From Actinomycetes bacterium (lineage in GTDB: Bacteria > Actinomycetota > Acidimicrobiia > Spongiisociales > SHLN01): 24,000 bases of DNA. Position 1 is the stretch's first letter. Each line of letters opens with the position of its first letter. The notes under the pieces were generated by a model. It saw nothing but the letters and a program-made list of their open reading frames with translations, had not been told where the DNA came from and made no database searches. The DNA is taken from the NCBI GenBank assembly GCA_024638625.1, contig JAHEJY010000018.1, forward strand, positions 6,398 through 30,397, read 5' to 3'. Shown here piece by piece: positions 1 through 24,000 of this stretch. A program made the position numbers and the translations under genes.

Positions 1-3000
1 CAGCCAGAGTCTTTGGCAAATCCAGACCCATCTCATGGAAGCCGGCGTCAAGGGCGATTTCATCCTCGCCAATGCACACGGGGTTCGATTCAATCGCGCG
101 TCTTCATATTGGCTCGATGTCGAGGCTTTCGAGACAGGCCTTCGAGCCATCAAAGACAACACGGCTGACGTGGGAGACCTGGCCGCTACCGCCGATTTGT
201 ACCGGGGAGATTTGCTCAGCGGATTTTACGACGAGTGGTTTTTGCTCGACCAGGCGAGGCTTCGAGACGAGTACCTCGACCTCCTCGGCTCGATCTCCAC
301 CGCCCACAAGAGCCGCGGTCGCTTCGACGACGCCTTGATCTTCGCCCGCCGGCTGGCATTGAACGACCCGCTCCGCGAAGAAGCACATCGCGAGGTCATG
401 CGACTCTGCTATCTGGCAGGAAGACCCAACGACGCACTGCTGCAGTATGAAATCTGCTACGCCACGTTGCAAGACGAACTGGGGACCGAACCGACGGCGG
501 AGACCACTGCACTATTCGAATCGATTGCCGCCGAACGTGAAGCAGGTTCCGTCCCCTTTAGGCCGGCCGCTTCGTCCCCCTTGCTCGACAACGACATGCA
601 GATTCCGCTCGTTGGCCGACGGGACGAGCGCGCCGTTGGCCTATCGATCATCGAAGGTGCATTGACGTCACAAGGCGGGATGCTGCTCGTCGAGGGCGCC
701 GCCGGCGTCGGAAAGAGCAGATTCCTGGATGCGTTGATCGACGATGCGAACTGGCGGGGTATCGGGGTCCTGAGAGGCGACGCCGGACTGACTCGCGAGA
801 GCTACGCACCGATTTCGGCAGCGCTCGAGCAATCGCTCACGCGCCTGCGGGTCGACCAGCTAGGAGCCCAGATCGAACCGGTCTGGTTGCGCAAGGTCGC
901 CAACCTCACGCCGCAGATCAACGAGTGGATTCCTGATTTGCCGCCTTCGGCGGCGCTGCGCCCATCGGAGGAATCCCATCGAATGCTCGAGGCCATCGCC
1001 CATGTTTTCGTGGGATTGTCGAATATCTCCCCTTTGTTGCTCGTTCTCGACGATTTCGACGCGGCCGACGATGACACTGTGCGTGCCATACGACACCTGA
1101 GCAACATTGTTGACGGGAGTCGTCTCGTTATCGCATTGTCTTACCACAAGGACGTCGCGGCTGAACGGGACATCATCTGGGACTGCTTGCGAGAGATCGA
1201 CCGGCTTCCCAACACACGCCGGGTGGACCTGAAGCCGCTATCCGAACCCGAAACGGTCGAGCTGATCAGGTTGAGCACGGCATCCGACATGGACCCCGGC
1301 CGATCGGCACTCCTGCACGCCGAAACCGGCGGCAATCCGCTCTTTCTGCTCGAAACGCTAAGAGCGCAGCACGAGCACCAGGTTGCGGCAGCAACCGCCG
1401 GAACTACCGTGCTCACGGACCGATTCCCACTCCCTGACAGCGTTCAGGACGCGATCGGCGCTCGGATAGCGGCGTTGAGTGCTTCCCAGATCGAGCTATT
1501 GCGGTGGCTTGCGGTGGCCGGTATCGAGGCCGAGGCCGAAGTGCTCCTGGCAGCGAATCCACGACCCCGGCCAGAGTTCTTCTTCGATCTGGACGCTCTC
1601 GTCCAGCGCGGCATCATCGCCAACCGTGAAGGTCGTTATCGATTCGTGCATCAACAGGTCCAGCGGGTCGTCGACCTCGGTCTCGACGACCGGGTCGCAT
1701 TCCACAGAGCTATCGCCAATTCGCTCGAGGCGTTACACCCGGAGTGGCCCGAGTCCATCGCTCACCACTATGCCGCTGCCGGTAATGGAAGATCGGCGGC
1801 GATGTACGCCGAGCAGGCCGCCGCCCGGGCCATCAACGTAAAGGCCTATGCGAATGCCGCTCAGTTTTACGCCATGGCATTGGAGAGCGCGGATGACGGG
1901 AGCCTCGACAATGCAACCCGGTTCCGGCTTCTTTCGGGGCTCGAGCAATCTTTGGACGTTCTCGGGGATAGGGCCGGACAGGCCGAGGCGCTAAAGGCGA
2001 TGTCCGACACCGGATCAGGGACGAATTCAGAGCGATCGGAAACGCTACGCCGGATCGCCTGGCTCCAAGCCCATACCGATCGATTCGAAGAGGCAATCGT
2101 GACTGCGGGCCAGGCACTCCAGATCGACCTCGAACGCGGCGACGAAGCTTCGATGGCACATGACTTTCGGGCACTAGGCATGATCAGCCTGTGGTCCGGC
2201 AATGCCAGTCAGGCAATCTCGCATCTCGAACAAGCCACCAGCCTCGCTCGCGGTGAGCAACTGGCGGAAGCCACCGAGGCTCTCGCCAGGGCTTTGACGG
2301 CAGCGCAGCGCTATGACGAGGCCTCCCGTCAGGCTGAAACCGCCCTCAGGCTCTTCGTCGCTGCTGATAATCGGCGCGGGCAGGCCGAAGCGCTCGGATC
2401 ACTCGGCGTCATCACCATGGAACGGGGCGAAGCCGAAGCCGCTCTCGACTTCTATCAGCGGGCGATCCACGTCTGCCGGGCTATCGGCTATCAACACGGT
2501 GAGGGAGTCAACCTGGTCAATCACGCGAACGCGCTCTGGTATACCGGCCGCGCAGCTGAGGCGCTGGATCAGTTCGAAGAGGCGATTGCCGTGTTCCGAG
2601 CCCTCTCGAATCGTCGCGGCGAAGCGGTGGCGCGTGCGAACGCGGCGGCGCTCCATCACACCATTGGCGACAATAAGACTGCCCAGGCCTACAGCGAACA
2701 GTCCTTCAGCTACTTTGCCGAGGTCCAGAACGATGTCGGATTGGCCCAGGTGTTGTGCAACCTCGCCGATATCGCCCGAACGCAAGGGCGTTTCGACGAG
2801 AGCCGCACCCACTTGACGACCGCGCTGGCCGGAACCCGGGCCTCTGAGAATCACTGGCTCGAAATCCAAGCATTGCATGCCCTCGCATTGGTGGAACTCG
2901 AGTCAGGCAACCATGGTCACGCCATCGGCGTTGCCGACGAGGCACTCGGCGTGTCGCGCACATATGGCTTCGGAGATTTCGCTCCGAACCTACTGTCCAT

Positions 3001-3598
3001 TCGGGGGATGGCGCAGCTTGCCCAAGGAGATCTGAATTCGGCCCTGGCTTCGACGTCGGAGGCCATCAAGCTCCTTCATCCGGGTAGCAATCGCGCGTAT
3101 CTCATCCCGCATCGGCACGCGGTCGTACTCGAAGCTTGTGGTCGCAGCGACGAAGCGGCCCTATTCGCGGCAGAGGCAGCTTCCATGCTCGATCAGGCCC
3201 TCGCCGGCCTTCCGGAAGACAAGCTCGAGGCAGTCAGGTCGGTTCCTGAGCACAGCAAGATCCAGACCGGCACAGCCAAGACGGTCGAGGCGCGAATGGT
3301 TCGCGAGGGCGTACCAACCGGACGCCACCTCACCGACGACGACTACGTTCCCGTTCGGCTGACGATTCATCAGCCATCGGACCTGCAGATAGCGGACCCG
3401 GCGACCCGCCGCGGCCAGCAGATCATCCGATTGGTTTCAGAAGCTAGAGAACAGGGTGCCGTGCCTACGGTGGATGATCTTGCGTCCCACCTCTCCACGA
3501 GCGTTCGAACGGTGCGGAGGACCATCGCCGGCCTGCGAACCGCCGGAACCGAGATCACCACCAGAGGGTCGAAACGCTCCCCCGGTAGAAAGAACTAG
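1..3598 (+). CDS. SARP/AfsR-like STAND transcriptional regulator: BTAD + P-loop NTPase + TPR array + extra C-terminal HTH; 5' end probably outside the window
   Basis: ORF track gives 35..3598, but the frame stays open back to nt 2 (SQSLWQIQTHL before Met35). The first residues look like the end of an OmpR-type winged helix. BTAD signature: DLYRGDLL..DEWF..REEAHREVMRLCYLAGRPNDALLQYE. Walker A is GAAGVGKS and Walker B is LLLVLDDFD. A long Ala/Leu-rich TPR-like repeat region spans aa ~600-1050. C-terminal HTH: PTVDDLASHLSTSVRTVRRTIAGLRTAG. Confidence 0.85.
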   Translation, partial: SQSLWQIQTHLMEAGVKGDFILANAHGVRFNRASSYWLDVEAFETGLRAIKDNTADVGDLAATADLYRGDLLSGFYDEWFLLDQARLRDEYLDLLGSISTAHKSRGRFDDALIFARRLALNDPLREEAHREVMRLCYLAGRPNDALLQYEICYATLQDELGTEPTAETTALFESIAAEREAGSVPFRPAASSPLLDNDMQIPLVGRRDERAVGLSIIEGALTSQGGMLLVEGAAGVGKSRFLDALIDDANWRGIGVLRGDAGLTRESYAPISAALEQSLTRLRVDQLGAQIEPVWLRKVANLTPQINEWIPDLPPSAALRPSEESHRMLEAIAHVFVGLSNISPLLLVLDDFDAADDDTVRAIRHLSNIVDGSRLVIALSYHKDVAAERDIIWDCLREIDRLPNTRRVDLKPLSEPETVELIRLSTASDMDPGRSALLHAETGGNPLFLLETLRAQHEHQVAAATAGTTVLTDRFPLPDSVQDAIGARIAALSASQIELLRWLAVAGIEAEAEVLLAANPRPRPEFFFDLDALVQRGIIANREGRYRFVHQQVQRVVDLGLDDRVAFHRAIANSLEALHPEWPESIAHHYAAAGNGRSAAMYAEQAAARAINVKAYANAAQFYAMALESADDGSLDNATRFRLLSGLEQSLDVLGDRAGQAEALKAMSDTGSGTNSERSETLRRIAWLQAHTDRFEEAIVTAGQALQIDLERGDEASMAHDFRALGMISLWSGNASQAISHLEQATSLARGEQLAEATEALARALTAAQRYDEASRQAETALRLFVAADNRRGQAEALGSLGVITMERGEAEAALDFYQRAIHVCRAIGYQHGEGVNLVNHANALWYTGRAAEALDQFEEAIAVFRALSNRRGEAVARANAAALHHTIGDNKTAQAYSEQSFSYFAEVQNDVGLAQVLCNLADIARTQGRFDESRTHLTTALAGTRASENHWLEIQALHALALVELESGNHGHAIGVADEALGVSRTYGFGDFAPNLLSIRGMAQLAQGDLNSALASTSEAIKLLHPGSNRAYLIPHRHAVVLEACGRSDEAALFAAEAASMLDQALAGLPEDKLEAVRSVPEHSKIQTGTAKTVEARMVREGVPTGRHLTDDDYVPVRLTIHQPSDLQIADPATRRGQQIIRLVSEAREQGAVPTVDDLASHLSTSVRTVRRTIAGLRTAGTEITTRGSKRSPGRKN

Positions 3599-8490: not shown

Positions 8491-9752
8491 ATCAACAAAG
8501 CCGAACCGAGGAGCAAGCCGATGATCAGCGCCAGAGCCGGCAGCACCACTTTCTTGAGCGCCCGCGAGGCCACCGCCATCACGATTCCGCCCTTGACCAG
8601 CGTGTTGGTCGCTGCCGCCAATGCGATGGCAGCTCCTGCTGTGGCATCCTCGACCGGACCATCTCCTCGGGACAGCTCAGCCAACGACAGGGTTATCGCG
8701 TCAACGTCTGCTATACCAGATATCACGGCTGAAGCGTATACCCCGGCTTCACCCAGCCACTCCGAGGCAGCCTTGGCCACGACCAGAACGACCCCGTATA
8801 TCAGCCCGAATTCAATGGCGGGTCGGAGTCGGAAAGGGTTTGAGAAGGTTCCAGTTTCTTCACCCGCATCAGCCGTACCGCGTCGGAAGTACAGGAACAG
8901 CGCTACGGCCAGTCCGGAGACTGCGCCGACCGCCATCGGAAACCAGATCTCCGACAGCAGTTCGAAATTGACGGCCGCAACTTCGATGATGACCCTGACG
9001 AACATGATTGTCCAGGCAAGCAGCAACGCCAACGCCAGTGGTCGCTCGAGCCCTGAACTGTTCTGGCTGCGCTCGGACATTGATATGGTCACGGCCGTGG
9101 ACGACACCAGTCCGCCCAACAGTCCGGTGAGACCGGTTCCCCGCCGGGCGCCGACGGCTTGAATCAAGACGTACCCGATGAATGACAGTCCGGAGATGAA
9201 TACAACCATCAGACCCACATTGAATGGGCTGGTGGCGTTCCACGGTGAAGGACCATACGTCTCGGTCGGGAGCAGGGGAAGAATGAGCGCAGCCAGCACT
9301 GCGAATTTGACCGTGGCGTAAATGTCTTCGCTATCGATCCGGGATGCGATCATGCGCGTTTGCGGCTTGATGGCCAGCAGCGTCATCGTTGCTACCCCGG
9401 CGGCCGCCGCTACGACCAGGTCGCCTGCGAACGCCAGACCGCCTGTCAGAAACACCACAATCGCGGCCAGTTCCGTTGTCTGGCCGATTTCTCCCTCCTG
9501 AATACCGGCTTGATAGGCCAGCGCAACGAATCCCCCGGCTACCAGGAGGGCCGCGACAAATATCCACGGACTACCCAGGAGCTCGCTCCCATACGCCGCC
9601 AGCCCTCCGGCCAAGCCCAGCAAAGAAAACGTGCGTGAGCCCGCGAACATCTCCTCATCGCCTTCGCGCTTCGCATACTCACGCTGAAGTCCAACAAGGA
9701 GGCCGATCCCAAGACCGGCGCCCAATCGCCCAAAAACTTCAGTGAGTTCCAT
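8487..9752 (-). CDS. MgtC/SapB-family membrane protein with DUF4010-type C-terminal extension
   Basis: 421 aa polytopic membrane protein. The N-terminus LGIGLLVGLQREYAKR..FAGSRTFSLLGLAGG matches the MgtC-family start motif. The remainder is multi-TM, as in DUF4010 proteins. Confidence 0.78.
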   Translation of the reverse strand: MELTEVFGRLGAGLGIGLLVGLQREYAKREGDEEMFAGSRTFSLLGLAGGLAAYGSELLGSPWIFVAALLVAGGFVALAYQAGIQEGEIGQTTELAAIVVFLTGGLAFAGDLVVAAAAGVATMTLLAIKPQTRMIASRIDSEDIYATVKFAVLAALILPLLPTETYGPSPWNATSPFNVGLMVVFISGLSFIGYVLIQAVGARRGTGLTGLLGGLVSSTAVTISMSERSQNSSGLERPLALALLLAWTIMFVRVIIEVAAVNFELLSEIWFPMAVGAVSGLAVALFLYFRRGTADAGEETGTFSNPFRLRPAIEFGLIYGVVLVVAKAASEWLGEAGVYASAVISGIADVDAITLSLAELSRGDGPVEDATAGAAIALAAATNTLVKGGIVMAVASRALKKVVLPALALIIGLLLGSALLI

Positions 9753-12790: not shown

Positions 12791-14761
12791 ATGACAACCC
12801 TCCCAGACCCTGACGACCTCGTGTTCGACCTGGCCGACATGGATTCAACCGTGTCCCCCGGGGCCGACTTCTATCAGTTCGTGAACGGAGGATGGTTGGC
12901 TGCCAATCCTGTCCCGGACGATTATTCGCGGTGGGCGGCATTCGATGAGGTGCGAGTTGCCAATGAGGATTTGCTCCACGGGCTATTCCAGGCAGCTGCA
13001 GAAGGCCAGGGCGAGCCCGGGACACCAGCCCACTGGTGTGGAGAGTTCTACCGGGCGGGCATGGACACGACGCGGATCGAGGCCGAAGGCCTCGCTCCGG
13101 TCCAGCCGCTCCTGGACAGCCTGGAGTCCATCGCGAGCATCTCCGATCTGAGCCACGTAGCTTCGGATCTGATCCCGCTGGGCCTCGCTCTCCCGATTGG
13201 TGGCGGCGTAGTTCCTGACTTCGATGACAGTCGCCGACATCTCCTCTATCTCGGTTCAGGCGGAATGGGGCTCCCGGAGCGCGATTATTACTTCCGCGAC
13301 GATGAGCAGTCCGAGCGGCTCCGCGATCAGTACCGGACACATATCGAAGCAATGCTCGATCTCAGCGGCTATCCCGATCCCGGGGAGCGAGCTGTCCAGG
13401 TTGTGCGTTTCGAGTCGGCGCTCGCCGAGCAGGCCTATACCGCGGCCCAGCAACGGGACATGGATCTGGTGCTCAATCGCAGGGCCGTCTCCGAGCTCGA
13501 TGGCCTCATGCCGAATTTTGGACTCGTGGGCTTCATGGCCCGTTTCGGAGCAACCGGAATCAGCGCAGTAAACGTGGCCAATCCGAGCTTTTTTGCCGCC
13601 GCCGACGAACTCCTGACCGGTGCCGAGATCGAAACCATACGAGCCTGGTCACGCTGGCATCTTCTTTCGAGCGTTGCATCGTCTCTTCCACGTCCGTTCG
13701 AGGATGAGGCATTTCGCTTCTACGGTCAGATATTGGGGGGCCAAAAGGAACAGCGAGAGCGTTGGAAGCGTGTATTGAGATCGGCATCAGCCGACCTCGG
13801 CCAGCTGGTGGCGCAGCTCTATGTGGCCGAGGCCTTCAGTCCGGAGGCCAAAGCGAGAGCTCAAGAAATGGTCGCCCACATCATCGAGTCGATGCGCCGC
13901 GCAATCAGGGGACTCGACTGGATGTCAGAAGAGACGAAACGGGCGGCGGTCAGCAAGCTGGAAGGATTCGTGGCCAAACTCGGCTACCCCGATGAGTGGC
14001 GCGACTATTCCGCATTGGATCTCGGCGACGGACCTTATGTAAATGTCCGGCTCGCCGCGCGCAGATTCGAATTCGATCGGCGTCTAAATGAACTCCACGA
14101 GCCGGTCAACCCGGAAGAATGGGAAATGGGGGCCCACGAAGTCAACGCCTACTACCACCCACTGCGCAACGAGATCGTCTTTCCGGCCGGCATCCTCCAA
14201 CCACCATTCTTCCAGGCAGACGCGGACGATGCCGTGAACTATGGAGGCATCGGGGCCGTGATCGGACACGAAATTACCCACGGATTTGATGACATGGGCA
14301 GCCGCTTTGATGCAAACGGGAACTTCGCAAACTGGTGGACCGAACAAGATCGGGAAGAATTCGAGAGGCGGGCCCAGGTGCTCGTTGATCAGTTTTCCCG
14401 ATACGAACCGCTCGCCGGCCTCTTCGTCAATGGCGATTTGACCCTGGGTGAGAACATCGCCGACCTGGGTGGCGTAACGATCGCGTACGAGGCTCTCCAG
14501 GAGGCCCTCGATCGGAACAACCGCGATCTCGTCGGCGGGCTGACACCCGAACAGAGATTCTTCCTCGCCTACGCGCGGGTCTGGCGGACAAACTCTACCG
14601 ACGAGCATTTGCGGCTTTCGGTCCAAACAGACCCGCATTCCCCCGGCGAATACCGCTGCAACGGACCACTAGGCAATCTGGAAGCCTTCGCTCGAGCATT
14701 CAACCTCTCGAATGACGCCACGATCATCAGGCCCGAGGACGAACGAGCAAAGGTCTGGTAG
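12791..14761 (+). CDS. M13-family zinc metallopeptidase (neprilysin/PepO/Zmp1-like), no signal peptide
   Basis: 656 aa. HEXXH is VIGHEITHGFD, with downstream GENIADLGG and NAYY motifs. The N-terminus has DFYQFVNGGWL, typical of M13. No hydrophobic N-terminal segment. Confidence 0.92.
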   Translation: MTTLPDPDDLVFDLADMDSTVSPGADFYQFVNGGWLAANPVPDDYSRWAAFDEVRVANEDLLHGLFQAAAEGQGEPGTPAHWCGEFYRAGMDTTRIEAEGLAPVQPLLDSLESIASISDLSHVASDLIPLGLALPIGGGVVPDFDDSRRHLLYLGSGGMGLPERDYYFRDDEQSERLRDQYRTHIEAMLDLSGYPDPGERAVQVVRFESALAEQAYTAAQQRDMDLVLNRRAVSELDGLMPNFGLVGFMARFGATGISAVNVANPSFFAAADELLTGAEIETIRAWSRWHLLSSVASSLPRPFEDEAFRFYGQILGGQKEQRERWKRVLRSASADLGQLVAQLYVAEAFSPEAKARAQEMVAHIIESMRRAIRGLDWMSEETKRAAVSKLEGFVAKLGYPDEWRDYSALDLGDGPYVNVRLAARRFEFDRRLNELHEPVNPEEWEMGAHEVNAYYHPLRNEIVFPAGILQPPFFQADADDAVNYGGIGAVIGHEITHGFDDMGSRFDANGNFANWWTEQDREEFERRAQVLVDQFSRYEPLAGLFVNGDLTLGENIADLGGVTIAYEALQEALDRNNRDLVGGLTPEQRFFLAYARVWRTNSTDEHLRLSVQTDPHSPGEYRCNGPLGNLEAFARAFNLSNDATIIRPEDERAKVW

Positions 14762-14787
14762 CGATAAGCAAAGGTCTGGTAGCAATA
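14746..14787. repeat. 21-bp tandem duplication spanning the M13 peptidase stop codon
   Basis: AGCAAAGGTCTGGTAGCGATA (14746-14766) and AGCAAAGGTCTGGTAGCAATA (14767-14787), 20 of 21 identical. Each copy carries the last codons AKVW plus TAG. Confidence 0.9.
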
Positions 14788-14807
14788 ATCGTCATCCGCA
14801 GCCGGAT

Positions 14808-14836
14808 TTGATTCGAATACACCCGACCGGATAAAT
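14808..14836 (+). promoter_or_regulatory. sigma70-like promoter candidate for the heliorhodopsin unit
   Basis: TTGATT (14808-14813), a 17-nt spacer, then ATAAAT (14831-14836). The predicted start is about 14843-14845, giving a very short leader before ATG 14856. Confidence 0.35.
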
Positions 14837-14855
14837 CTGCGAAGATGGACAGAGC

Positions 14856-15596
14856 ATGAAGACTGACCGCCTGAGAATGTACAACCTCGTGATGGGAGGA
14901 CTTCACGCCGTTCAGGGCGTGCTCGTCGTGCTGTTGTCTAATGGCTTTTCCCTGCCGGTAACCGCCACACTTGCCGAGGGTCCTCCCGGTACCCCGCTTT
15001 CCGATCCGGCCACGCTGTTCGAAATTCCGGTTGGAGCCGGCGTCGCCCTATTTCTGTTTCTATCGGCGTTGTTTCATTGGATCATCATCTCGCCACCATT
15101 CTTTGACCGATACCTCGAAGGGCTGACCCGCCATCGGAATTATTTCCGGTGGGTCGAATATTCACTTTCCTCGTCGGTGATGATCATTCTCATCGCCACG
15201 CTGGTAGGCATCAGCGACATCGCAGCGCTCGTTGCCCTTTTCGGTGTGAACGCATCGATGATCTTCTTCGGAGCGGTGCAGGAAAAGTACGAGGAGCCGG
15301 GGGGATCACTGCTTCCATTCTGGCTCGGCACCATTGCCGGCATAACCCCCTGGATCGCCATCACGATCTACCTCTCTACCCCGCTCTCGGATTCCAATCC
15401 TCCGGGTTTCGTCTACGGCATATTCTTCTCCCTCTTCTTCTTCTTCAACACGTTCGCCATCAACCAGTGGCTGCAATACCGCCAGATCGGCAAATGGAGT
15501 GACTATCTCTACGGGGAACGGACCTACATCCTCTTGAGCCTGCTCGCCAAGTCGGCTCTGGCCTGGCAGGTGTTCGCCGGCACACTCGCGGCCTGA
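14856..15596 (+). CDS. heliorhodopsin (7-TM retinal protein, inverted topology family)
   Basis: 246 aa. Collinear by eye with heliorhodopsin 48C12 as I remember it. Matching motifs: PPGT, LFH, FRWVEYSLSSSVM (Glu101, nt 15156-15158), FGVNASMI, LPFW, PGFVYGI, FFFNTFA..QWLQY, and KWSDYLYGERTYILLSLLAKSALAWQVFAGTL (Lys232, nt 15549-15551, the putative Schiff-base lysine). Confidence 0.9.
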   Translation: MKTDRLRMYNLVMGGLHAVQGVLVVLLSNGFSLPVTATLAEGPPGTPLSDPATLFEIPVGAGVALFLFLSALFHWIIISPPFFDRYLEGLTRHRNYFRWVEYSLSSSVMIILIATLVGISDIAALVALFGVNASMIFFGAVQEKYEEPGGSLLPFWLGTIAGITPWIAITIYLSTPLSDSNPPGFVYGIFFSLFFFFNTFAINQWLQYRQIGKWSDYLYGERTYILLSLLAKSALAWQVFAGTLAA

Positions 15597-16060
15597 TGGT
15601 CGAGTCCGTGTGGGACTACCCCCGTCCACCGTTGGCCGAGCCAAGCGACCGGTTGATCGAGATTGATTTCGACGGTGAAACCATCGTGGCAACCCGGGAC
15701 TCAATTCGGATACTCGAAACGAGCCATCCGCCGGTGTATTACCTGCCCGTATCCGCCTTCGCTCCTGGCGTCCTCCGGCCCAGCGACCCTGGCACGTTCT
15801 GCGAGTTCAAAGGCAGTGCGTCGTACTTCGATGTCGTCGGCGACGGCCGAATCGAGGCGGCCGCGGCCTGGGGTTATCCACGACCGGCATCGGGCTACGA
15901 GTCACTTGCTGGTCGGGTTGCCCTCTACCCGGCACGCATGGACGCCTGTCGGGTGGATGGCGAGTCTGTCATGGCCCAGGAGGGCGATTTCTATGGCGGC
16001 TGGATCACATCTGACATCAGTGGACCTTTCAAAGGGGCCCCGGGCACGCTCGGATGGTGA
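15596..16060 (+). CDS. DUF427 domain protein (long ~155-aa form)
   Basis: DUF427 core pattern: ETSHPPVYYLP....L.PSD..T.CEFKGSASYFDV......AAWGYPRP...Y..LAGRVALYP. The C-terminal FYGGWIT..ISGPFKGAPGTLGW tail is seen in long-form members. Its ATG (15596-15598) overlaps the heliorhodopsin TGA (15594-15596). Confidence 0.85.
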   Translation: MVESVWDYPRPPLAEPSDRLIEIDFDGETIVATRDSIRILETSHPPVYYLPVSAFAPGVLRPSDPGTFCEFKGSASYFDVVGDGRIEAAAAWGYPRPASGYESLAGRVALYPARMDACRVDGESVMAQEGDFYGGWITSDISGPFKGAPGTLGW

Positions 16061-16081
16061 CCTCGGGTATCTGCGCCGGAC

Positions 16082-17839
16082 ATGGCCGCCGGGTACGATG
16101 TTTGGGGCTTCCCCACGAGTCGGAACGGGAGTGACATGGACGCAAGCATCGACCTGGCGTTAAACGAGCTCGCCCGGAAGAAGGACGACTGGGCTTCGCT
16201 GAGCATTGGTCGCAAGGTTCAATACCTGGAGTCGATGCGGACTGCAATCGACCGCACGGCCGCCGAATGGGTACGCCTGGCCCTCGATGGGAAACAGATT
16301 CCGACCGACTCCCCTATCGCCGGCGAAGAATGGATCTCGGGCCCCTATGCCGTTCTGATCGCCATCAACGCCGTCTCCAAAACCCTTCAAGCGTTGCAGT
16401 CCGGTTCGGATGTTCTGGCGGGCACCCGGACCCGGACGGCCAGCGACGGAACCGTGATCGTCAAAGTGTTTCCGGGCGATATCTTCGACCATCTTTTGTT
16501 GAGCGGCTACCGGGCTGAAGTGTGGATGGAGGAGGGCGTCACCCCCGCCAATCTGCGGGACCATGTGGCATCGTTCTATAAGCAGGAAAACCGAAAGGGA
16601 GCTGTCGGCTTGATTCTCGGCGCCGGCAACATCGCTTCCATTCCCCTCCTCGACTTGTTGACGAAGATGTTCACCGAAGGTCAGGTCGTGATCATCAAAA
16701 TGAACCCGGTCAACGATTATCTCGGTCCGATCTTTGAAGAGATCTGCGCCGAGCTCATCGCCGATGGCTATGTTCGCTTCGTATACGGGGGAGGTGACGT
16801 CGGCGATTATTTGACCAAACACGAGGCGATCGACGCTGTCCACGTCACCGGAAGCGCCGAGACCTACTACAAGATCGCATTCGGGGGTGGAGAAGAAGGG
16901 GCGGATCGTCGAGCGCGGAACGAGCCGGTACTGAACAAGCCCTTCACGAGCGAGCTCGGCGGGGTCGGCCCAACTTTCATCGTCCCCGGCCCATGGACAG
17001 CAGCCGATTTCACCTATCAGGCAGAACACCTGGCAACGCAGAAGTTCCACAACGCAGGGTTCAACTGTATCGCTTCCCAGGTCCTCGTTCTCCCGGCGAC
17101 ATGGGATGGGTCGGACCGACTCGTCGACGAGCTCCGCAGGACCATTCGAATGATCCCGGCCCGTGAGGCCTACTACCCGGGGGCTGATGAGCGTCAGGCG
17201 GCTGCCCTGGCGAAACACCCCCATGCCGAAGTCCTCGATTCGGGAACGATTCCGAGAATGCTGATCACCGACGTAGATCCGGACGGCAAAGACCAGTATG
17301 CGTTCACCACCGAATTCTTCGGGGGCGTCTACGCGACGACGAGACTTCCCGAAACCGAACCTGCGGCGTTTGTGCGGGCTGCCACAAAGTTCGCCAACGA
17401 AAAACTGGCAGGAACGCTCGGTGCTCAATTCATCATCCATCCCAAAACTCTCAAAGAAATCGGTTCTGTACTCGAGGAATCCATCGCAGATCTCAACTAT
17501 GGAAGCATCGGGATCAATAGCTGGACGGGAGCCGGCTATCTGCTTCCCGCTGCTACCTGGGGCGCCTATCCCGGCCACACAGCATCCGAGATCGGCAGCG
17601 GGACCGGGGTTGTGCACAACTCCTTCATGTTCGACGTGCCGGAAAAGACGGTTGTCTACGCTCCCTTTCACCCGTTTCCGCGTGCGGTCATCAATCGACA
17701 GTTTCATCTTTCACCGAAACCCCCCTGGTTTGTCACGCACTCCCGTGCCCACGTGGCCGGGGAACGTCTGACCCGCTTCGCCGCCCGGCCCGGTTGGCTT
17801 CACCTGCCCGGCATCTTTGCGGCTGCTCTCCGGAACTAG
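16082..17839 (+). CDS. aldehyde dehydrogenase superfamily protein
   Basis: ALDH landmarks: GAGNIASIP (cofactor-binding region), ELGGVGP (catalytic Glu region), FHNAGFNCIASQ (catalytic Cys region). An alternative start at ATG 16136 (MDASIDLALNEL) has GGGAG just upstream and may be the true start. Confidence 0.88.
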   Translation: MAAGYDVWGFPTSRNGSDMDASIDLALNELARKKDDWASLSIGRKVQYLESMRTAIDRTAAEWVRLALDGKQIPTDSPIAGEEWISGPYAVLIAINAVSKTLQALQSGSDVLAGTRTRTASDGTVIVKVFPGDIFDHLLLSGYRAEVWMEEGVTPANLRDHVASFYKQENRKGAVGLILGAGNIASIPLLDLLTKMFTEGQVVIIKMNPVNDYLGPIFEEICAELIADGYVRFVYGGGDVGDYLTKHEAIDAVHVTGSAETYYKIAFGGGEEGADRRARNEPVLNKPFTSELGGVGPTFIVPGPWTAADFTYQAEHLATQKFHNAGFNCIASQVLVLPATWDGSDRLVDELRRTIRMIPAREAYYPGADERQAAALAKHPHAEVLDSGTIPRMLITDVDPDGKDQYAFTTEFFGGVYATTRLPETEPAAFVRAATKFANEKLAGTLGAQFIIHPKTLKEIGSVLEESIADLNYGSIGINSWTGAGYLLPAATWGAYPGHTASEIGSGTGVVHNSFMFDVPEKTVVYAPFHPFPRAVINRQFHLSPKPPWFVTHSRAHVAGERLTRFAARPGWLHLPGIFAAALRN

Positions 17840-17862
17840 CCACATCACGACGGGCCCATGAT

Positions 17863-17910
17863 GTTTGACAATTGGTGCGTCTGACATTGGTGCGTTTGAC
17901 ATTGCTGCGA
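17863..17910. repeat. three tandem direct repeats GT(T/C)TGACA(A)TTG(G/C)TGCG
   Basis: Copies at 17863-17880, 17879-17895 and 17894-17910, with periods of 16 and 15 bp. The TGACA cores start at 17866, 17882 and 17897. The third copy supplies the -35 element of the promoter candidate. Confidence 0.75.
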
Positions 17911-17918
17911 TCGGGTAA
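17894..17918 (+). promoter_or_regulatory. sigmaB/sigmaF-type (general stress) promoter candidate for the SRPBCC gene
   Basis: GTTT (17894-17897), then 15 nt, then GGGTAA (17913-17918). This fits the GTTT-N15-17-GGGTA pattern of actinobacterial SigF/SigB and Bacillus SigB promoters. It lies 36 nt upstream of the ATG. Confidence 0.45.
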
Positions 17919-17953
17919 CCAACCGGTAGCCAACGTTAAGGAGAGATTCAGCC

Positions 17954-18418
17954 ATGTCGAGCGTTACAGAAACTATCGATATCGATGTCGATGTAAGAAC
18001 CGCGTATAACCAGTGGACCCAGTTCGAGACATTTCCCGAATTCATGGAGGGCGTCGAATACGTACGCCAGGTGGACGACATAACCAACGAATGGAAAGTT
18101 GACATCGGCGGAGTCGAGCGTGAATTCAAGACCGTCATTGCCGAGCAGGAGCCAGACATGCGCATCGCATGGACCACCGTCGAAGGTCCGCCGCACAAGG
18201 GAGTCGTGACCACCCATCGTCTTGATGACGGCAAATCCAGAGTGACGCTACAAATGGACTATGACCCGCAAGGTTTTGTTGAAACCCTCGGTGATACGTT
18301 CGGAATCGTGGCATCCCGGGTTCGCGGTGACCTCGAACGCTTCAAGGAATTTATCGAAGAGCGCGGTAGCGCCACCGGTGGTTGGCGAGGGACCGTCGAA
18401 CAGACAGCGACCGAGTAG
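17954..18418 (+). CDS. SRPBCC (cyclase/dehydrase, START-like) family protein
   Basis: 154 aa. I..DVDVRTAYNQWTQFE.FPEFMEGV....V.D....W is the typical start of actinobacterial Polyketide_cyc2/SRPBCC proteins. Strong SD AAGGAG at 17938-17943. Confidence 0.85.
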   Translation: MSSVTETIDIDVDVRTAYNQWTQFETFPEFMEGVEYVRQVDDITNEWKVDIGGVEREFKTVIAEQEPDMRIAWTTVEGPPHKGVVTTHRLDDGKSRVTLQMDYDPQGFVETLGDTFGIVASRVRGDLERFKEFIEERGSATGGWRGTVEQTATE

Positions 18419-18459
18419 GGCCTCCCAGCCAGTCGGCAGTCACCGACCAACCACGCACC

Positions 18460-18507
18460 AAAAAAACGACAAAGGCCATCCCATGAGAGCGGGGGTGGCT
18501 TTTGTCG
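18460..18507 (-). terminator. intrinsic terminator of treS (possibly also a barrier for the convergent SRPBCC gene)
   Basis: On the minus strand: CGACAAAAGCCACCCC-gctctcat-GGGATGGCCTTTGTCG (14 of 16 positions paired), followed immediately by TTTTTTT (18466-18460). It lies 62 nt after the treS stop. Confidence 0.68.
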
Positions 18508-18568
18508 CGCTCGGGGGCGCGGGTTTGTCGACCGCTACGTCCGTGACCGTATTGCACCTGGCGACTGC

Positions 18569-20206
18569 CTAGTCCGGGCGACGAATCAACCAGCGAAACT
18601 CCCTGGGGCCCAGGTCAATCGTGGCCGGAACCGGTTCGCCCGACACTGCGTCGATCACGTCGATGAACGTGCCGCTGTCATCGCCTTGTCCTGGTACGGC
18701 CATCATGGAAGCCGCTATCTCGACCTGAACCGTCCGATCCGCAACATTCGCCGCAACCAAAACGGACTGCGTCGCATCAGACCTGCTGAATTTCAGGATC
18801 GCCGGGTCATCGCTGGCATGTAGCTCGAAACCTCCTGTGCCGAATACCCCGAGTTTTCGCCTGATGTCCAGGAGCCGTCGGATCTGATTGAGCAGCGAGG
18901 TGTCGTCCTCCATCTCGTTGAGAACATTGATCGTGTCAGAATCAAACCCGGGCGTCGCCACGATCGGAAGGTAATACGATGCGGGATCTGCCGTCGAGAA
19001 ACCGGCCGTCGGCCCCGGTTCCCACTGCATCGGTGTCCTGACGCCATCCCGATCCCGTAGCAGGTATTCGTCGCCCATCCCCAGCTCGTCACCGTAGTAG
19101 AGGAAAGGCGATCCGGGCAGAGATAGCAGGAGGCCGTGGAGTAGCTCGATCAGGCGTCGATCGTTTTCGAGTAGCGGAGCGAGACGTCTTCTGATACCAA
19201 CGTTCTTCTTCATCCGGGGATCCGGCGCATACTCCCGATACATGAACTCACGATCTTCCTCCGTGACCATTTCCAGCGTCAACTCATCGTGATTACGCAA
19301 GAACAGGCCCCACTGGGTCGAGGGAGGGATGGGCGGCGTCGCCTTGATGGCCTCGATGATGTCGTTCGTATGCTGCCGCTTCAACGCCATGAAAAGCGGT
19401 GGCATGATCGGGAAGTGATACGCCATGTGGCATTCGTCTCCGTCGCCCAGATAGTCCACGACCTGAACCGGAGGCTGGTTCGCCTCGGCCAGCAGCATCC
19501 GCTCGTCGAATTCGGCATCAACGGCTGCCCGCAACTCCTTGAGGAACGCGTGCGTCTCGGGGAGGTTTTCGCAATTCGTGCCTTCCCTCTCGAAGAGGTA
19601 GGGAATGGCGTCGAGGCGCAGACCGTCGAACCCGAGCTCGAGCCAGAACCGCACGACATCGACGACGGCCGCACGCACCTGCGGGTTGTCGAAGTTGAGA
19701 TCTGGTTGCTCTGCATAGAAACGATGCCAGAAATAAGCGCCCGCGGTCTCGTCCCAGGTCCAGTTGGAGTCGAGCGAATCGACGAAGATCACCCTGGCGT
19801 CTGGGTATTTGTCTGGAGTATCGCTCCAGACGTACCAATCTCGTTTCGCCGAGCCTGGCTCCCTGCTCTCCAGGAACCATGGGTGTTGGTCGCTCGTATG
19901 GTTCATGACCATATCTGCGATGACCCTCATGCCGCGGGTATGGGCCTGATGAAGCAGTGCCCTGACGTCATCAAGCGTTCCGTACTCGGCCCGAACGCCG
20001 GTCAAATCGCTCACGTCGTATCCCCCGTCGACCATGGGGGAAGGAAAGAAAGGCAGGAGCCACAGGCAATCAACCCCGAGCCATTCCAAATAGTCGAGCT
20101 TCGCCGTTATACCGGCGATATCACCGATCCCGTCTCCATTCGAATCGAAGAAGGCATGAACCGGGATTTCGTAGAAGACCGCGGTTTCGTACCACACGCC
20201 GTGCAC
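18569..20206 (-). CDS. treS: trehalose synthase / maltose alpha-D-glucosyltransferase (GH13), no maltokinase domain
   Basis: WYETAVFYEI.VHAFFDSNGDGIGD..G...KLDYLEWLGVDCLWLLPFFPSP..DGGYDVSD, then VMNHTSDQHPWF, GFDGLRLDA and LRNHDELTLE. These match TreS rather than generic amylases. GTG start at 20206. Confidence 0.88.
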   Translation of the reverse strand: MHGVWYETAVFYEIPVHAFFDSNGDGIGDIAGITAKLDYLEWLGVDCLWLLPFFPSPMVDGGYDVSDLTGVRAEYGTLDDVRALLHQAHTRGMRVIADMVMNHTSDQHPWFLESREPGSAKRDWYVWSDTPDKYPDARVIFVDSLDSNWTWDETAGAYFWHRFYAEQPDLNFDNPQVRAAVVDVVRFWLELGFDGLRLDAIPYLFEREGTNCENLPETHAFLKELRAAVDAEFDERMLLAEANQPPVQVVDYLGDGDECHMAYHFPIMPPLFMALKRQHTNDIIEAIKATPPIPPSTQWGLFLRNHDELTLEMVTEEDREFMYREYAPDPRMKKNVGIRRRLAPLLENDRRLIELLHGLLLSLPGSPFLYYGDELGMGDEYLLRDRDGVRTPMQWEPGPTAGFSTADPASYYLPIVATPGFDSDTINVLNEMEDDTSLLNQIRRLLDIRRKLGVFGTGGFELHASDDPAILKFSRSDATQSVLVAANVADRTVQVEIAASMMAVPGQGDDSGTFIDVIDAVSGEPVPATIDLGPREFRWLIRRPD

Positions 20207-21780: not shown

Positions 21781-21915
21781 CGCCGCGTAGCGTGACTAGA
21801 GTTGGTCACGGAGCGGGAGTTCCGGACACGCAGAGCATTGGCGGGGATCTGCAAACGGCCATTAACAGGGCCAGACCGGAAGATGCCTAAGGGCAGGGAC
21901 GAAAGAGGGAAAGCA

Positions 21916-22776
21916 GTGGGACGGGCGGCAGCGAACCAGGCGGCAGCGAACCAGGCGGCAGCGAACCAGGCGGCAGCGGCACGAAACACAGGGAAGTCCG
22001 CGACGGCAGGGCAATCAGCGAGATCCCGTGCAGCCGGAGACGATGAGGTGTCCTCGTCCACGGTCGAGTCCGCATCATGCGACTCAACCCATGCTGTCGA
22101 GCTGGCTGCTTATCGGACCGCACTGTCAGCAATGGCTTTGAAGCTCTCGCGCGCCGTGGATGACGAGCGAACGCGAATCGCGCGAGGTCTGCACGATGAC
22201 TTGGGCCAAACCCTCGTGGCCGCACAGCTACGTCTTGCGGAGCTGAAACGAGGCGGCACCGAACGCGAGATTCGTTCCATCATTCAGCATGTGAACGATC
22301 TCGTCGGTGAAGCTGTCTCCTCGTCGAGGTCACTTACGTTCGAACTGATGACACCGCTCATGCCCGAACTCGGAATCGAGAATGAGCTGAGACACATCAC
22401 CGCAAGGATCGCCAAGCGCCACGACTTCGGGTTCCGCTTCGAATGTGATGCGCTGCCTAAGCCAATGGGCCGAGAAGAAGCAGAGACATTGCTCCGTGCC
22501 GTTCGTGAACTGCTCATCAATGTGGGCAAACACGCCAGGGCCGACACGGCATCCGTGACCATCATCGGAAGGGGAGCAAAGGCGGAGGTCAGTGTTCGGG
22601 ACGACGGTATCGGGTTCGCTACCGAACAAGAGCGCGAGCCTCATGCCACTGGCTTCGGGTTGTTGATCATCCGGGAACGGCTCCGGGAAGTGGGCGGCGA
22701 CATGGTGATCGACTCCAGCCCGGGTGCGGGCACCGAGGTCGTACTGACCATCCCACTGTTACAGGAGCAAACATGA
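21916..22776 (+). CDS. soluble HisKA_3-type sensor histidine kinase lacking TM and recognisable input domain
   Basis: H-box ERTRIARGLHDDLGQTL. HATPase_c motifs: ELLINVGKHA, DDGIGF, GFGLLIIRERL. The N-terminal ~90 aa are low-complexity (AAANQ x3). The ORF track starts at TTG 21802. GTG 21916 has SD GAGGG at 21905-21909, and ATG 21883 is another option. Confidence 0.85.
   Translation: MGRAAANQAAANQAAANQAAAARNTGKSATAGQSARSRAAGDDEVSSSTVESASCDSTHAVELAAYRTALSAMALKLSRAVDDERTRIARGLHDDLGQTLVAAQLRLAELKRGGTEREIRSIIQHVNDLVGEAVSSSRSLTFELMTPLMPELGIENELRHITARIAKRHDFGFRFECDALPKPMGREEAETLLRAVRELLINVGKHARADTASVTIIGRGAKAEVSVRDDGIGFATEQEREPHATGFGLLIIRERLREVGGDMVIDSSPGAGTEVVLTIPLLQEQT
21925..21978. repeat. perfect 15-bp tandem repeat, 3.6 copies (GCGGCAGCGAACCAG), in frame as AAANQ
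   Basis: Identical units at 21925-21939, 21940-21954 and 21955-21969, plus a partial 9-nt copy at 21970-21978. Confidence 0.95.
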
Positions 22777-23432
22777 TGGGGACCGTTCGAGTTCTTGTGG
22801 TGGACGACCACTCCATTGTGCGCGAAGGACTTCGTTCGCTGTTGGAGAAAGAATCCGATATCACGGTGGTAGCTGAAGCACCGGACGGAACGTCAGCACT
22901 CAGCGCAGCGCTGGAGCACCAGCCCGACGTGGTCATGATGGACGTTTCCATGCCGGGCATGAACGGCATCGAGGCAACCAGGCGTGTCACCAGCCTGGTT
23001 CCCGACGCAAGGGTCGTGTGCTTGTCGCTTCACGCCGATCCTCACATAGTCTCGTCAATGCTCGAAGCCGGCGCCTCTGGTTATGTGGTCAAATCGGCCG
23101 ATCTCATCGAATTGGCCACGGCGGTGAGAACGGTGGCGGCAGCTCAGACCTATCTGAGCCCGGCAATCGCGGGCGGGATCGTGCGCGATCATTTGGCCCG
23201 GCGAGCCTCGTTGCCCTCCGAGCCCCGGCTGACCGATCGTGAACGCGAGGTGCTCCAGCTGATCGCCGAAGGCAACGGCACCGGCGAGATCGCCGGACGA
23301 TTGTTCATCAGTGCCAAGACAGTCAGCACCCATAGAGAAAACATCATGCGAAAACTCAACCTCCACAACGTTGTGGCTCTCACAAAATACGCAATCCGTC
23401 AGGGGATCTCGACCGCCGAGCCCGACTTGTAA
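22773..23432 (+). CDS. NarL/FixJ-family response regulator (REC + LuxR-type HTH)
   Basis: VRVLVVDDH...., the MDVSMPGMNG phospho-acceptor region, and the C-terminal LTDREREVLQLIAEGNGTGEIAGRLFISAKTVSTHRENIMRKL. ATGA overlap with the kinase stop (22773-22776). Confidence 0.93.
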   Translation: MMGTVRVLVVDDHSIVREGLRSLLEKESDITVVAEAPDGTSALSAALEHQPDVVMMDVSMPGMNGIEATRRVTSLVPDARVVCLSLHADPHIVSSMLEAGASGYVVKSADLIELATAVRTVAAAQTYLSPAIAGGIVRDHLARRASLPSEPRLTDREREVLQLIAEGNGTGEIAGRLFISAKTVSTHRENIMRKLNLHNVVALTKYAIRQGISTAEPDL

Positions 23433-23465
23433 CCGGACATCGCCGGTTGTCGTTTTGTTCTTTCT
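23431..23465 (+). terminator. weak intrinsic terminator after the NarL-type regulator
   Basis: AACCGG-acatcg-CCGGTT directly after the TAA, followed by the T-rich GTCGTTTTGTTCTTTC. The stem is only 6 bp. Confidence 0.4.
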
Positions 23466-23601
23466 GAGAATAAGAAATGGAGATGTTCCGCACGGCGCAC
23501 TTGGCTTCTAAGGTCATTGCCGATTCAAGCCTGAACCACATAGATGCATAGTTACCACACCTCCCCAACGTGTAGCTCTATTCATCGGTGGTTCAGCAAT
23601 C

Positions 23602-24000
23602 GTGATAACCATCCTCGTGGTCGAAGACCACCCGGCCTACGGGGCGGCCCTGACATCGTTCCTGAGCGCGGAAAAAGACCTGGTCGTCCTGGCCCTGGCC
23701 GGGAACGGTGAAACAGCCATCGCCCTTGCTGCAGAGTGGCAGCCGGCCGTCGTCTTGATCGATCTGGTACTTCCCGGAATGAGCGGACTTGATGCGACAC
23801 GACGGATTCTGTCCGTGGCGCCCGACTCGCACGTGCTGGTCCTATCACTGCAATCAGGACATCATCTCATGGTCGAGTCTCTGCGGGCAGGCGCCGCCGG
23901 CTTCGTCTCCAAAGATCGCGCGGCCGACAACATCGTCGAAGCTGTTCGCGCAGTTCAGCGCGGGCACCGCTTCTTTCCGACTCCCGTCGACCTGTCGTAG
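23602..24000 (+). CDS. stand-alone receiver (REC-only) response regulator, NarL-type receiver without output domain
   Basis: GTG start. ITILVVEDHP...., LIDLVLPGMSGLD, ...VLVLS...., AGAAGFVSKD. TAG stop at 23998-24000, so the 132-aa protein is complete and has no HTH. Confidence 0.82.
   Translation: MITILVVEDHPAYGAALTSFLSAEKDLVVLALAGNGETAIALAAEWQPAVVLIDLVLPGMSGLDATRRILSVAPDSHVLVLSLQSGHHLMVESLRAGAAGFVSKDRAADNIVEAVRAVQRGHRFFPTPVDLS

Follow-up and report, generated by a model that had tools for sequence, protein, structure and literature searches.

When a heliorhodopsin (HeR) gene is tightly joined to the gene of a soluble protein, are the two products partners, members of a common response or neighbours by accident? 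The question matters because the physiological role of heliorhodopsins is still open and functional leads come solely from their operon neighbours. In a stretch of 24,000 nt from an Acidimicrobiia genome (contig JAHEJY010000018.1; hereafter the window), the stop codon of a HeR gene overlaps the start codon of a DUF427 gene, and a gene of the aldehyde dehydrogenase (ALDH) superfamily follows. An initial annotation of this DNA had proposed that DUF427 is a dedicated, light-modulated partner of HeR. By a modest margin of confidence we prefer another reading, co-expression of HeR and DUF427 within a light-response context: HeR, DUF427 and ALDH would form one transcription unit that is restricted to a small Acidimicrobiia clade, and the DUF427 subfamily is enriched beside photolyase/cryptochrome genes and vitamin B12-dependent LitR/CarH genes, with DNA glycosylase genes recurring there too.

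Five genes (M13, HeR, DUF427, ALDH and SRPBCC) lie on the forward strand at 12.8–18.4 kb of the window, and two of them share a base:

12791–14761, forward strand: M13 (PepO-like) metallopeptidase gene (PF05649, PF01431)
14856–15596, forward strand: HeR gene, 246 aa, 48C12-like (PF18761, NF038020)
15594–15598, forward strand: TGATG stop/start overlap, in which base 15596 belongs both to the HeR TGA and to the DUF427 ATG
15596–16060, forward strand: DUF427 gene, 154 aa, beta-tent fold (PF04248)
16136–17839, forward strand: divergent ALDH-superfamily gene, 567 aa (PF00171), whose open reading frame reaches up to an ATG at 16082
17954–18418, forward strand: SRPBCC (polyketide cyclase/START-like) gene (PF03364, PF10604)

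The overlap of HeR stop and DUF427 start lies exactly where it had been annotated; the junction reads CTGATG, and no Shine-Dalgarno-like sequence stands ahead of the DUF427 ATG. ALDH is, as had also been stated, the next gene on the same strand, 21 nt past the DUF427 stop if counted from the ATG at 16082 and 75 nt past it if counted from the ATG at 16136; the latter, which is preceded by a GGGAG Shine-Dalgarno sequence and agrees with 567-aa orthologues as well as with the gene call on an identical contig, is most likely the true start. Between the three genes we found no terminator-like site or hairpin, predicted RNA folds of the three intergenic spacers are no more stable than those of shuffled sequence (z-scores 0.5–1.0), and an Rfam search of the window matched no RNA family. 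The same-strand adjacency, with its 1-nt overlap and 75-nt gap, fits one transcript for HeR, DUF427 and ALDH, and the sequence is compatible with the coupled unit that had been suggested, for which we infer co-transcription. Overlaps of 1 nt between stop and start are among the commonest operon junctions, and by itself the one seen here is no more than chance expectation; its conservation in three lineages is real. DUF427, which is without a ribosome-binding site of its own, would most likely be translated by termination–reinitiation at CTGATG, so that its synthesis would follow that of HeR.

The order HeR-DUF427-ALDH occurs in four related lineages of Acidimicrobiia, namely the window and three further lineages that were recovered by exact-sequence look-up of DUF427 homologues:

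L081: HeR 81% and DUF427 69% identical; HeR-DUF427-ALDH on a 2.9-kb contig
L084–L091: HeR 90% and DUF427 64% identical; M13-HeR-DUF427-ALDH-HEAT-SRPBCC
L143: HeR 92% (C-terminal 53 aa) and DUF427 65% identical; 12-nt gap before DUF427

The overlap, whose conservation had been put forward as a test, is kept as CTGATG in the window, L081 and L084, but not in L143: there, within 150–200, a TGATG remnant persists whose ATG opens a 6-codon reading frame, and DUF427 starts 12 nt past the HeR stop, a small insertion having loosened the overlap. The HeR gene of L081 (300–1037) is interrupted at codon 39 by an in-frame TAA in place of the Leu codon of the window (TTA to TAA) and is split into two open reading frames by the gene caller; this TAA may be an assembly error or mark a very young pseudogene, and DUF427 of the same contig is intact.

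A fifth member of the clade, L001, is the closest HeR relative (HeR 89%) and is missing DUF427. Its block reads hypothetical-M13-HeR-ALDH-SRPBCC-amylase-lyase, a 141-nt spacer stands in place of DUF427, and homology to the window ends right after the HeR stop. The synteny block common to the window, L001 and L084 begins upstream with M13, whose orthologues hold the same position at 77–81% identity, and the SRPBCC orthologues of L084 and L001 (81–90% identity) keep the block on its other side. In a bootstrapped, outgroup-rooted neighbour-joining tree of HeR, the window, L001, L084 and L081 group together at 100% bootstrap, with L081 basal at 100%. Since L001 lies inside the clade and the basal L081 carries DUF427, the gene was present in the clade ancestor and was later lost in L001. 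A recent horizontal insertion of DUF427 was rejected, because its GC content at third codon positions (0.70) equals that of its neighbours and the basal L081 already has the gene; independent recruitments of DUF427 to HeR were rejected as well, because the HeR-linked DUF427s form one small clade. Of all genes in the block DUF427 evolves fastest within the clade, with identities of 64–69% versus 81–90% for HeR, 65–77% for ALDH and 77–81% for M13.

These comparisons bear on the proposal of a direct partner, according to which DUF427 would dock to HeR on its cytoplasmic face and be modulated by light in its activity or availability, while the coupling would supply a fixed ratio at the membrane. 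That CTGATG has been kept in three lineages despite 31–36% divergence of the DUF427 protein argues for such an arrangement. The pairing is confined to a narrow clade, however, and was lost in L001, which retains HeR; L143 has a 12-nt gap instead of the overlap; and in L081 it is HeR that contains the in-frame stop and DUF427 that is intact.

How far does the pairing extend beyond this clade? A scan of one genome per GTDB species yielded 80 HeR loci, mostly from Acidimicrobiia and Nanopelagicales and with HeR 58–89% identical, 72 of which extend 600 nt or more past the HeR gene on its downstream side. Searched with tblastn and then with a profile hidden Markov model, none of these 80 species-representative loci has DUF427 near HeR, and ALDH, sought in the same two ways, was found near HeR in L001 alone. 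The predicted enrichment of DUF427 and ALDH behind HeR is not borne out, orthologous ALDHs occurring elsewhere, and the adjacency is found in one narrow Acidimicrobiia clade, a confinement to near relatives that the initial annotation had itself named as speaking against a partner module and that largely applies. HeR neighbourhoods are highly variable altogether (52 distinct downstream families at 74 loci, 110 Pfam families among 73 representative neighbours), which agrees with published surveys (PMC8612252, PMC11109279). This extreme variability favours the view that DUF427 is a neutral neighbour, which came to its place by chance, has been inherited there within a young clade and is tied to HeR by nothing more than the shared transcript, as do the many unrelated contexts of DUF427 and ALDH orthologues and the dispensability of DUF427 in L001. 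Yet it would then be a coincidence that a family associated with photolyase and LitR genes, as described below, landed behind HeR, and the overlap has been retained over considerable divergence; we consider mere accident unlikely.

The HeR loci without DUF427 offered several observations of their own. In L008 (1845–5405) HeR, an NmrA/DUF2867 (SDR) gene, SRPBCC and a LitR-like gene follow one another on a single strand; L016 (1243–5156) has a LitR-like gene and an adjacent ECF sigma gene at its HeR locus; and in L017 (5461–6666) an SRPBCC gene lies directly upstream of HeR. The LitR-like regulators at HeR loci have the CarH/LitR architecture HTH_17 + B12-binding_2 + B12-binding, and the SRPBCC proteins at these other Actinomycetota HeR loci belong to the same subfamily as the SRPBCC that is paired with DUF427. 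Convergent photolyase genes lie immediately downstream of HeR in metagenome-assembled genomes (MAGs) of freshwater actinobacteria (L036, 953–2335; L046, 6816–8183; L052, 2788–3177). A protein of about 490–520 aa recurs beside Acidimicrobiia HeR in L003, L004, L006 and L008 (probably also L010): The L008 copy combines NmrA/NAD_binding_10 with DUF2867 and is 55% identical to the L003 copy, with which those of L004 and L006 group by BLAST, and this neighbour is probably the published 'SDR family' neighbour group. The MerR, SDR and photolyase neighbours of DUF427-less HeR loci fit groups of Cho et al. 2024 (PMC11109279). The freshwater MAGs with Nanopelagicales-type HeR loci L020, L024, L036, L046, L052, L072 and L079 are labelled 'Bifidobacterium breve', an apparent taxonomy error.

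Starting from DUF427 instead, a metagenome scan for its relatives gave 49 loci (50–66% identical) with no HeR, ALDH, M13 or window-type SRPBCC nearby and with diverse immediate neighbours, Nei/Fpg and MPG glycosylases among them. A neighbour-joining tree of 157 DUF427 sequences unites the HeR-linked ones with P0124, P0126 and P0175 in an eight-member clade. P0124 and P0126 are not linked to HeR: they belong to overlapping SRPBCC-DUF427 pairs divergent from a regulator with HTH_17 and two B12-binding domains, which judged by these domains is of CarH/LitR architecture. L092 and L093 also contain SRPBCC-DUF427 pairs, with 4-nt overlaps, and LitR/CarH-type regulators are present at the related DUF427 loci L144, L147, L155 and L156, but not in the window. 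The divergent spacers between LitR-like gene and SRPBCC-DUF427 pair in L147 (816–995) and L144 (618–706), which come from two related organisms, share AATCTAGC and the block CTTAGCGCTAAAA / CTTAGCACTAAAA; a 10-bp palindrome in it is perfect in L147 (TTAGCGCTAA) and off by one base in L144 (TTAGCACTAA), and the element is a candidate operator.

Further afield, Streptomyces viridifaciens has a cryptochrome/photolyase gene, then an ECF sigma gene that overlaps DUF427 by 4 nt, then a regulator with MerR and B12-binding domains, and in Streptomyces sp. NBC_01558 a MerR + B12 regulator lies 1.4 kb from DUF427. A photolyase gene is divergent from DUF427 in Microvirga, Polymorphobacter has the operon DUF393-DUF427-photolyase, and in L097, L098 and L100 a photolyase-related (DPRP) gene is situated 51–54 nt upstream of DUF427. 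DUF393-DUF427 pairs occur in Roseomonas, Aureimonas and Sphingomonas and the order DUF393-DUF4149-DUF427 in Paracoccus; in several Alphaproteobacteria (L153, L159, L160, L162) the upstream DUF393 gene overlaps DUF427. On plasmid pAQ7 of Picosynechococcus PCC 7002 (L152, 3965–6817), DUF427 is followed by the ergothioneine genes egtB-egtD. DUF393 we take to be the DCC thiol-disulfide oxidoreductase family, and its contexts together with egtB-egtD suggest a thiol/redox theme alongside the light theme. Among these other loci, overlaps of 4 nt join DUF427 to a preceding SRPBCC, DUF393, DUF4149 or ECF sigma gene; to judge from gene spacing, translational coupling to the gene in front, be it SRPBCC, DUF393, ECF sigma or, here, HeR, is the usual state of the subfamily.

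To put numbers to this association, 71 non-HeR DUF427 loci were de-replicated at 85% identity to 46 lineages (307 kb). HeR lies near DUF427 in none of these 46 other lineages, and a photolyase-family or B12-LitR gene lies within 1.5 kb in nine of them, or in seven if two related pairs are merged. If 1–4 genes of these kinds per Mb are assumed as background, a count of nine or above has a Poisson probability between 5e-11 and, at the generous upper rate, 6e-6. As far as searchable literature shows, the association of DUF427 with light and ultraviolet (UV) genes is undescribed.

From the direct observations of anatomy, conservation, loss, absence elsewhere and enrichment, we propose the following course of events: Because the closest relatives of the HeR-linked DUF427s sit in SRPBCC-DUF427 pairs beside a LitR-like gene, a single relocation would have carried DUF427 from such a LitR-associated pair to behind HeR in the clade ancestor, with later loss in one lineage. 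DUF427 would have retained its habit of coupling to the preceding gene after the move, and a presumptive light- or UV-damage-response protein would since be co-expressed with a retinal photoreceptor. As the subfamily is independently tied to photolyase and B12 photoregulators, a shared light/UV role is likelier than pure accident, and a shared light-related role of HeR and DUF427 appears plausible from the genomic contexts. Several points weigh against this proposal. The background rate behind the enrichment is an assumption with no measured control, so that the effect size is approximate. The window has no LitR gene, photolyase gene or recognisable operator near HeR, and neither tblastn with four LitR-like queries nor the Pfam survey revealed a regulator of the LitR type in it. 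The tight overlap, kept at only 64–69% DUF427 identity, might just as well have been selected because the two proteins form a complex of fixed stoichiometry, and binding has been reported for three tested HeR operon neighbours, glutamine synthetase, photolyase and an ABC transporter (PMC9529153, PMC9769723, PMC11109279).

Is either protein of the window adapted to the other? HeR matches PF18761 over profile positions 1–242 of 242 (1.2e-100, 336 bits, cut-off 26.7), NF038020 with 331 bits (cut-off 100) and the 48C12 structures PDB 6SU3 and 9LJJ at 1e-89. In the alignment to 48C12-type structures, the Schiff-base lysine (LAKS) and the counterion glutamate (WVEYS) are both in place, and LSLLAKSALAWQ as well as RWVEYSLSS match column for column; in 48C12 numbering these residues are presumably K241 in transmembrane helix 7 and E107 in transmembrane helix 3. 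By these sequence criteria, the window protein is a full-length, canonical heliorhodopsin. Its three cytoplasmic loops are alike in DUF427-linked HeRs, in L001 and in more distant HeRs, and none of the five HeR positions unique to L001 is located in a loop, so that HeR gives, at the level of sequence, no sign of partner-specific adaptation.

DUF427 in turn matches PF04248 (9.5e-27, 93 bits, cut-off 22.1) and, by phmmer, PDB 3DJM (2.5e-11). Its AlphaFold2 model (pLDDT 93.4) found 3DJM as the sole match in Foldseek (E 8e-10, probability 1.00) and superposes on it with a TM of 0.86 (on target) and an rmsd of 2.0 Å. 3DJM is a DUF427 structure with the beta-tent fold and no known function (PMC4287342); for all its likeness to the window protein in PF04248 match and superposition, it is without the N-terminal ESVWDYPRPP motif and the C-terminal GDFYGGWIT...GPFKG extension of the ~155-aa subfamily to which the window protein belongs. 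An alignment of 50 members of this subfamily has 36 invariant positions, and the window protein keeps 36 of 36; many are polar or aromatic, among them E3, W6, Y8, R10, R38, E41, H44, C69, E70, K72, Y77, W92, W136, K146 and W154. Such conservation points to a pocket or active site that would be the same whether HeR, SRPBCC or another gene is upstream. Full-length members (45–57% identity) are found on plasmids of Streptomyces, several Alphaproteobacteria, Variovorax and Picosynechococcus; diderms are thus among the carriers, and HeR is reported to be absent from diderms (PMC8612252). Since the invariant residues of DUF427 are no different where HeR is missing, it is an ordinary subfamily member and not a HeR-specific transducer. 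The searched literature contained nothing on DUF427 function, and the supplements of a light transcriptome of M. kansasii make no mention of the family.

For the direct partner, these results add to both sides. The family's tie to light-response genes includes photolyase, itself a reported HeR partner (PMC9769723), and operon neighbours that bind HeR have precedent (PMC9529153, PMC11109279). On the other hand, the HeR cytoplasmic loop pattern is identical with or without DUF427 and in other lineages, and DUF427, which retains every residue that is invariant in its subfamily at large, does without HeR in diderms. The narrow distribution, the L001 loss, the loosened L143 junction, the unchanged HeR loops and the generic DUF427 conservation disfavour a dedicated receptor–effector pair, and we regard one as improbable here. 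A bolder variant would combine both ideas: DUF427 as an unrecognised light/UV-damage-response protein, whose invariant Trp/Tyr/Cys/His/Lys beta-tent pocket might bind a damaged nucleotide or small photoproduct, would have been captured by HeR, to which it would bind directly as a light-regulated effector, much as in the reported HeR-photolyase pair. We deem this decidedly improbable.

ALDH, the third gene of the unit, matches PF00171 over residues 199–358 only (50 bits, cut-off 23), and its ELGG and NAGFNC motifs align with the catalytic Glu/Cys region of 8YEN (ELGG, NAGQVC). Against the NCBIfam equivalogs its best score is 32 bits versus a cut-off of 615; none comes near its own cut-off, and no characterised substrate subfamily is matched. 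Orthologues of equal closeness (73–75%) occur in unrelated contexts (DUF302-ALDH-hypothetical, DUF3097/ALDH/VIT1), and more distant relatives (53–58%) in many phyla; beside HeR-DUF427, ALDH is likely a neighbour by descent. One might instead suppose that DUF427 and ALDH act together, for instance in aldehyde activation and oxidation, as the beta-tent enzyme GFA would suggest by analogy, with HeR merely lying upstream. Their adjacency in all four DUF427-bearing lineages would suit such a metabolic pair, and DUF427 and GFA are placed in one beta-tent fold class (PMC4287342). But L001 has kept ALDH while lacking DUF427, other genomes have it with neither of the two neighbours, it is near DUF427 in none of the 46 other DUF427 lineages, and it is set off by a spacer of 75 nt with a Shine-Dalgarno sequence of its own, so that we give this explanation hardly any credence. 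A retinoid-handling cluster of HeR, ALDH and SRPBCC was likewise rejected, as ALDH and window-type SRPBCC are not linked to HeR elsewhere; the Pfam survey of the 24-kb window revealed no retinal or carotenoid biosynthesis genes.

Two promoter-like elements stand at the borders of the unit:

14808–14836, forward strand: hexamers TTGATT-N17-ATAAAT (TTGATT 14808–14813, ATAAAT 14831–14836), weak and not conserved
17894–17918, forward strand: GTTT-N15-GGGTAA, sigB/sigF-type promoter-like, upstream of the SRPBCC gene

The hexamers of the first, read before as the unit's own promoter, do exist, but ATAAAT matches the −10 sequence TATAAT at three of six positions, a sigma-70-like promoter scan of 14600–18600 returned 0 sites versus 1.2 expected, and comparison of orthologous spacers showed the element not to be conserved in L084 and to be so partly in L001. 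The separate stress-type promoter of the next gene stands on firmer ground: GTTT-N15/16-GGGTAA(C/T) is kept about 35 nt before the SRPBCC start in three lineages, the window, L001 (about 8620–8650) and L084 (about 9380–9410). It fits what we take to be the actinobacterial sigB/sigF-type general-stress promoter consensus and probably marks the end of the HeR unit, with SRPBCC as a separate transcription unit. In the same spacer, at 17864–17909, three direct 15-bp repeats T(T/C)TGACA(A)TTG(G/C)TGCG each contain a TTGACA-like hexamer; L001 and L084 have no such repeats in their orthologous spacers, and the array may be an operator peculiar to the window or have arisen by slippage. Upstream of HeR, a 21-bp tandem duplication (14746–14788, two copies, 95% match; GCAAAGGTCTGGTAGCGATAA / GCAAAGGTCTGGTAGCAATAA) runs across the M13 stop codon, the final M13 codons and stop thereby being repeated just 3' of the gene. 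The ends of the window (35–3598 and 21802–24000) encode regulators without relation to the HeR unit: a 1187-aa BTAD-AAA-TPR-HTH protein at one end, and at the other a HisKA_3 kinase with a LuxR-type response regulator, plus a second receiver gene.

How does the locus compare with described systems? The pair of AbHeR and glutamine synthetase (Cho et al. 2022, PMC9529153) likewise consists of HeR and an adjoining same-strand gene for a soluble cytoplasmic protein in a proposed operon, but there the partner is an established enzyme whose binding and regulation have been measured, whereas the neighbour in the window is a DUF and a candidate partner at most. TfHeR-photolyase (Shim et al. 2022, PMC9769723) likewise ties HeR to a light/UV-damage-response protein, and DUF427-photolyase operons exist at L159 and L097; the window, in contrast, is without photolyase, and the link between DUF427 and photolyase is one of genomic context only. 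The surveys of Cho et al. 2024 (PMC11109279) and Bulzu et al. 2021 (neighbours within less than 10 bp, PMC8612252) are alike in approach and arrangement, and the MerR-family neighbour of L008 and the SDR neighbour of L003 match their groups; DUF427 and ALDH are neither in the ten HeR neighbour groups of the former nor among the neighbours discussed in the latter. Close DUF427 relatives adjoin LitR/CarH-type genes, the regulators of B12-dependent light regulons, whose partner ECF sigma factor in Streptomyces is LitS (PMC11519972), and the likeness extends to one Streptomyces plasmid on which DUF427 is coupled to an ECF sigma gene beside photolyase; that paper names no DUF427 gene. The window differs in having no LitR/CarH gene or operator, and DUF427 is a candidate member of such regulons at most. 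HeR with an operon-encoded soluble neighbour is accordingly an arrangement already known, and DUF427 a neighbour not previously listed; the initial assessment that a HeR-DUF427 system is undescribed agrees with the searched literature, in which no paper contains both terms.

As the pairing occurs in a narrow clade only, it provides one more candidate neighbour and no general answer on the role of HeR. For DUF427, a family with a crystal structure since 2008 and still no function, the adjacency to light and UV genes gives a testable hypothesis of a role in light/UV stress. This link is a more useful lead than the HeR pairing itself, and it is what gives the HeR-DUF427 pair a rationale.

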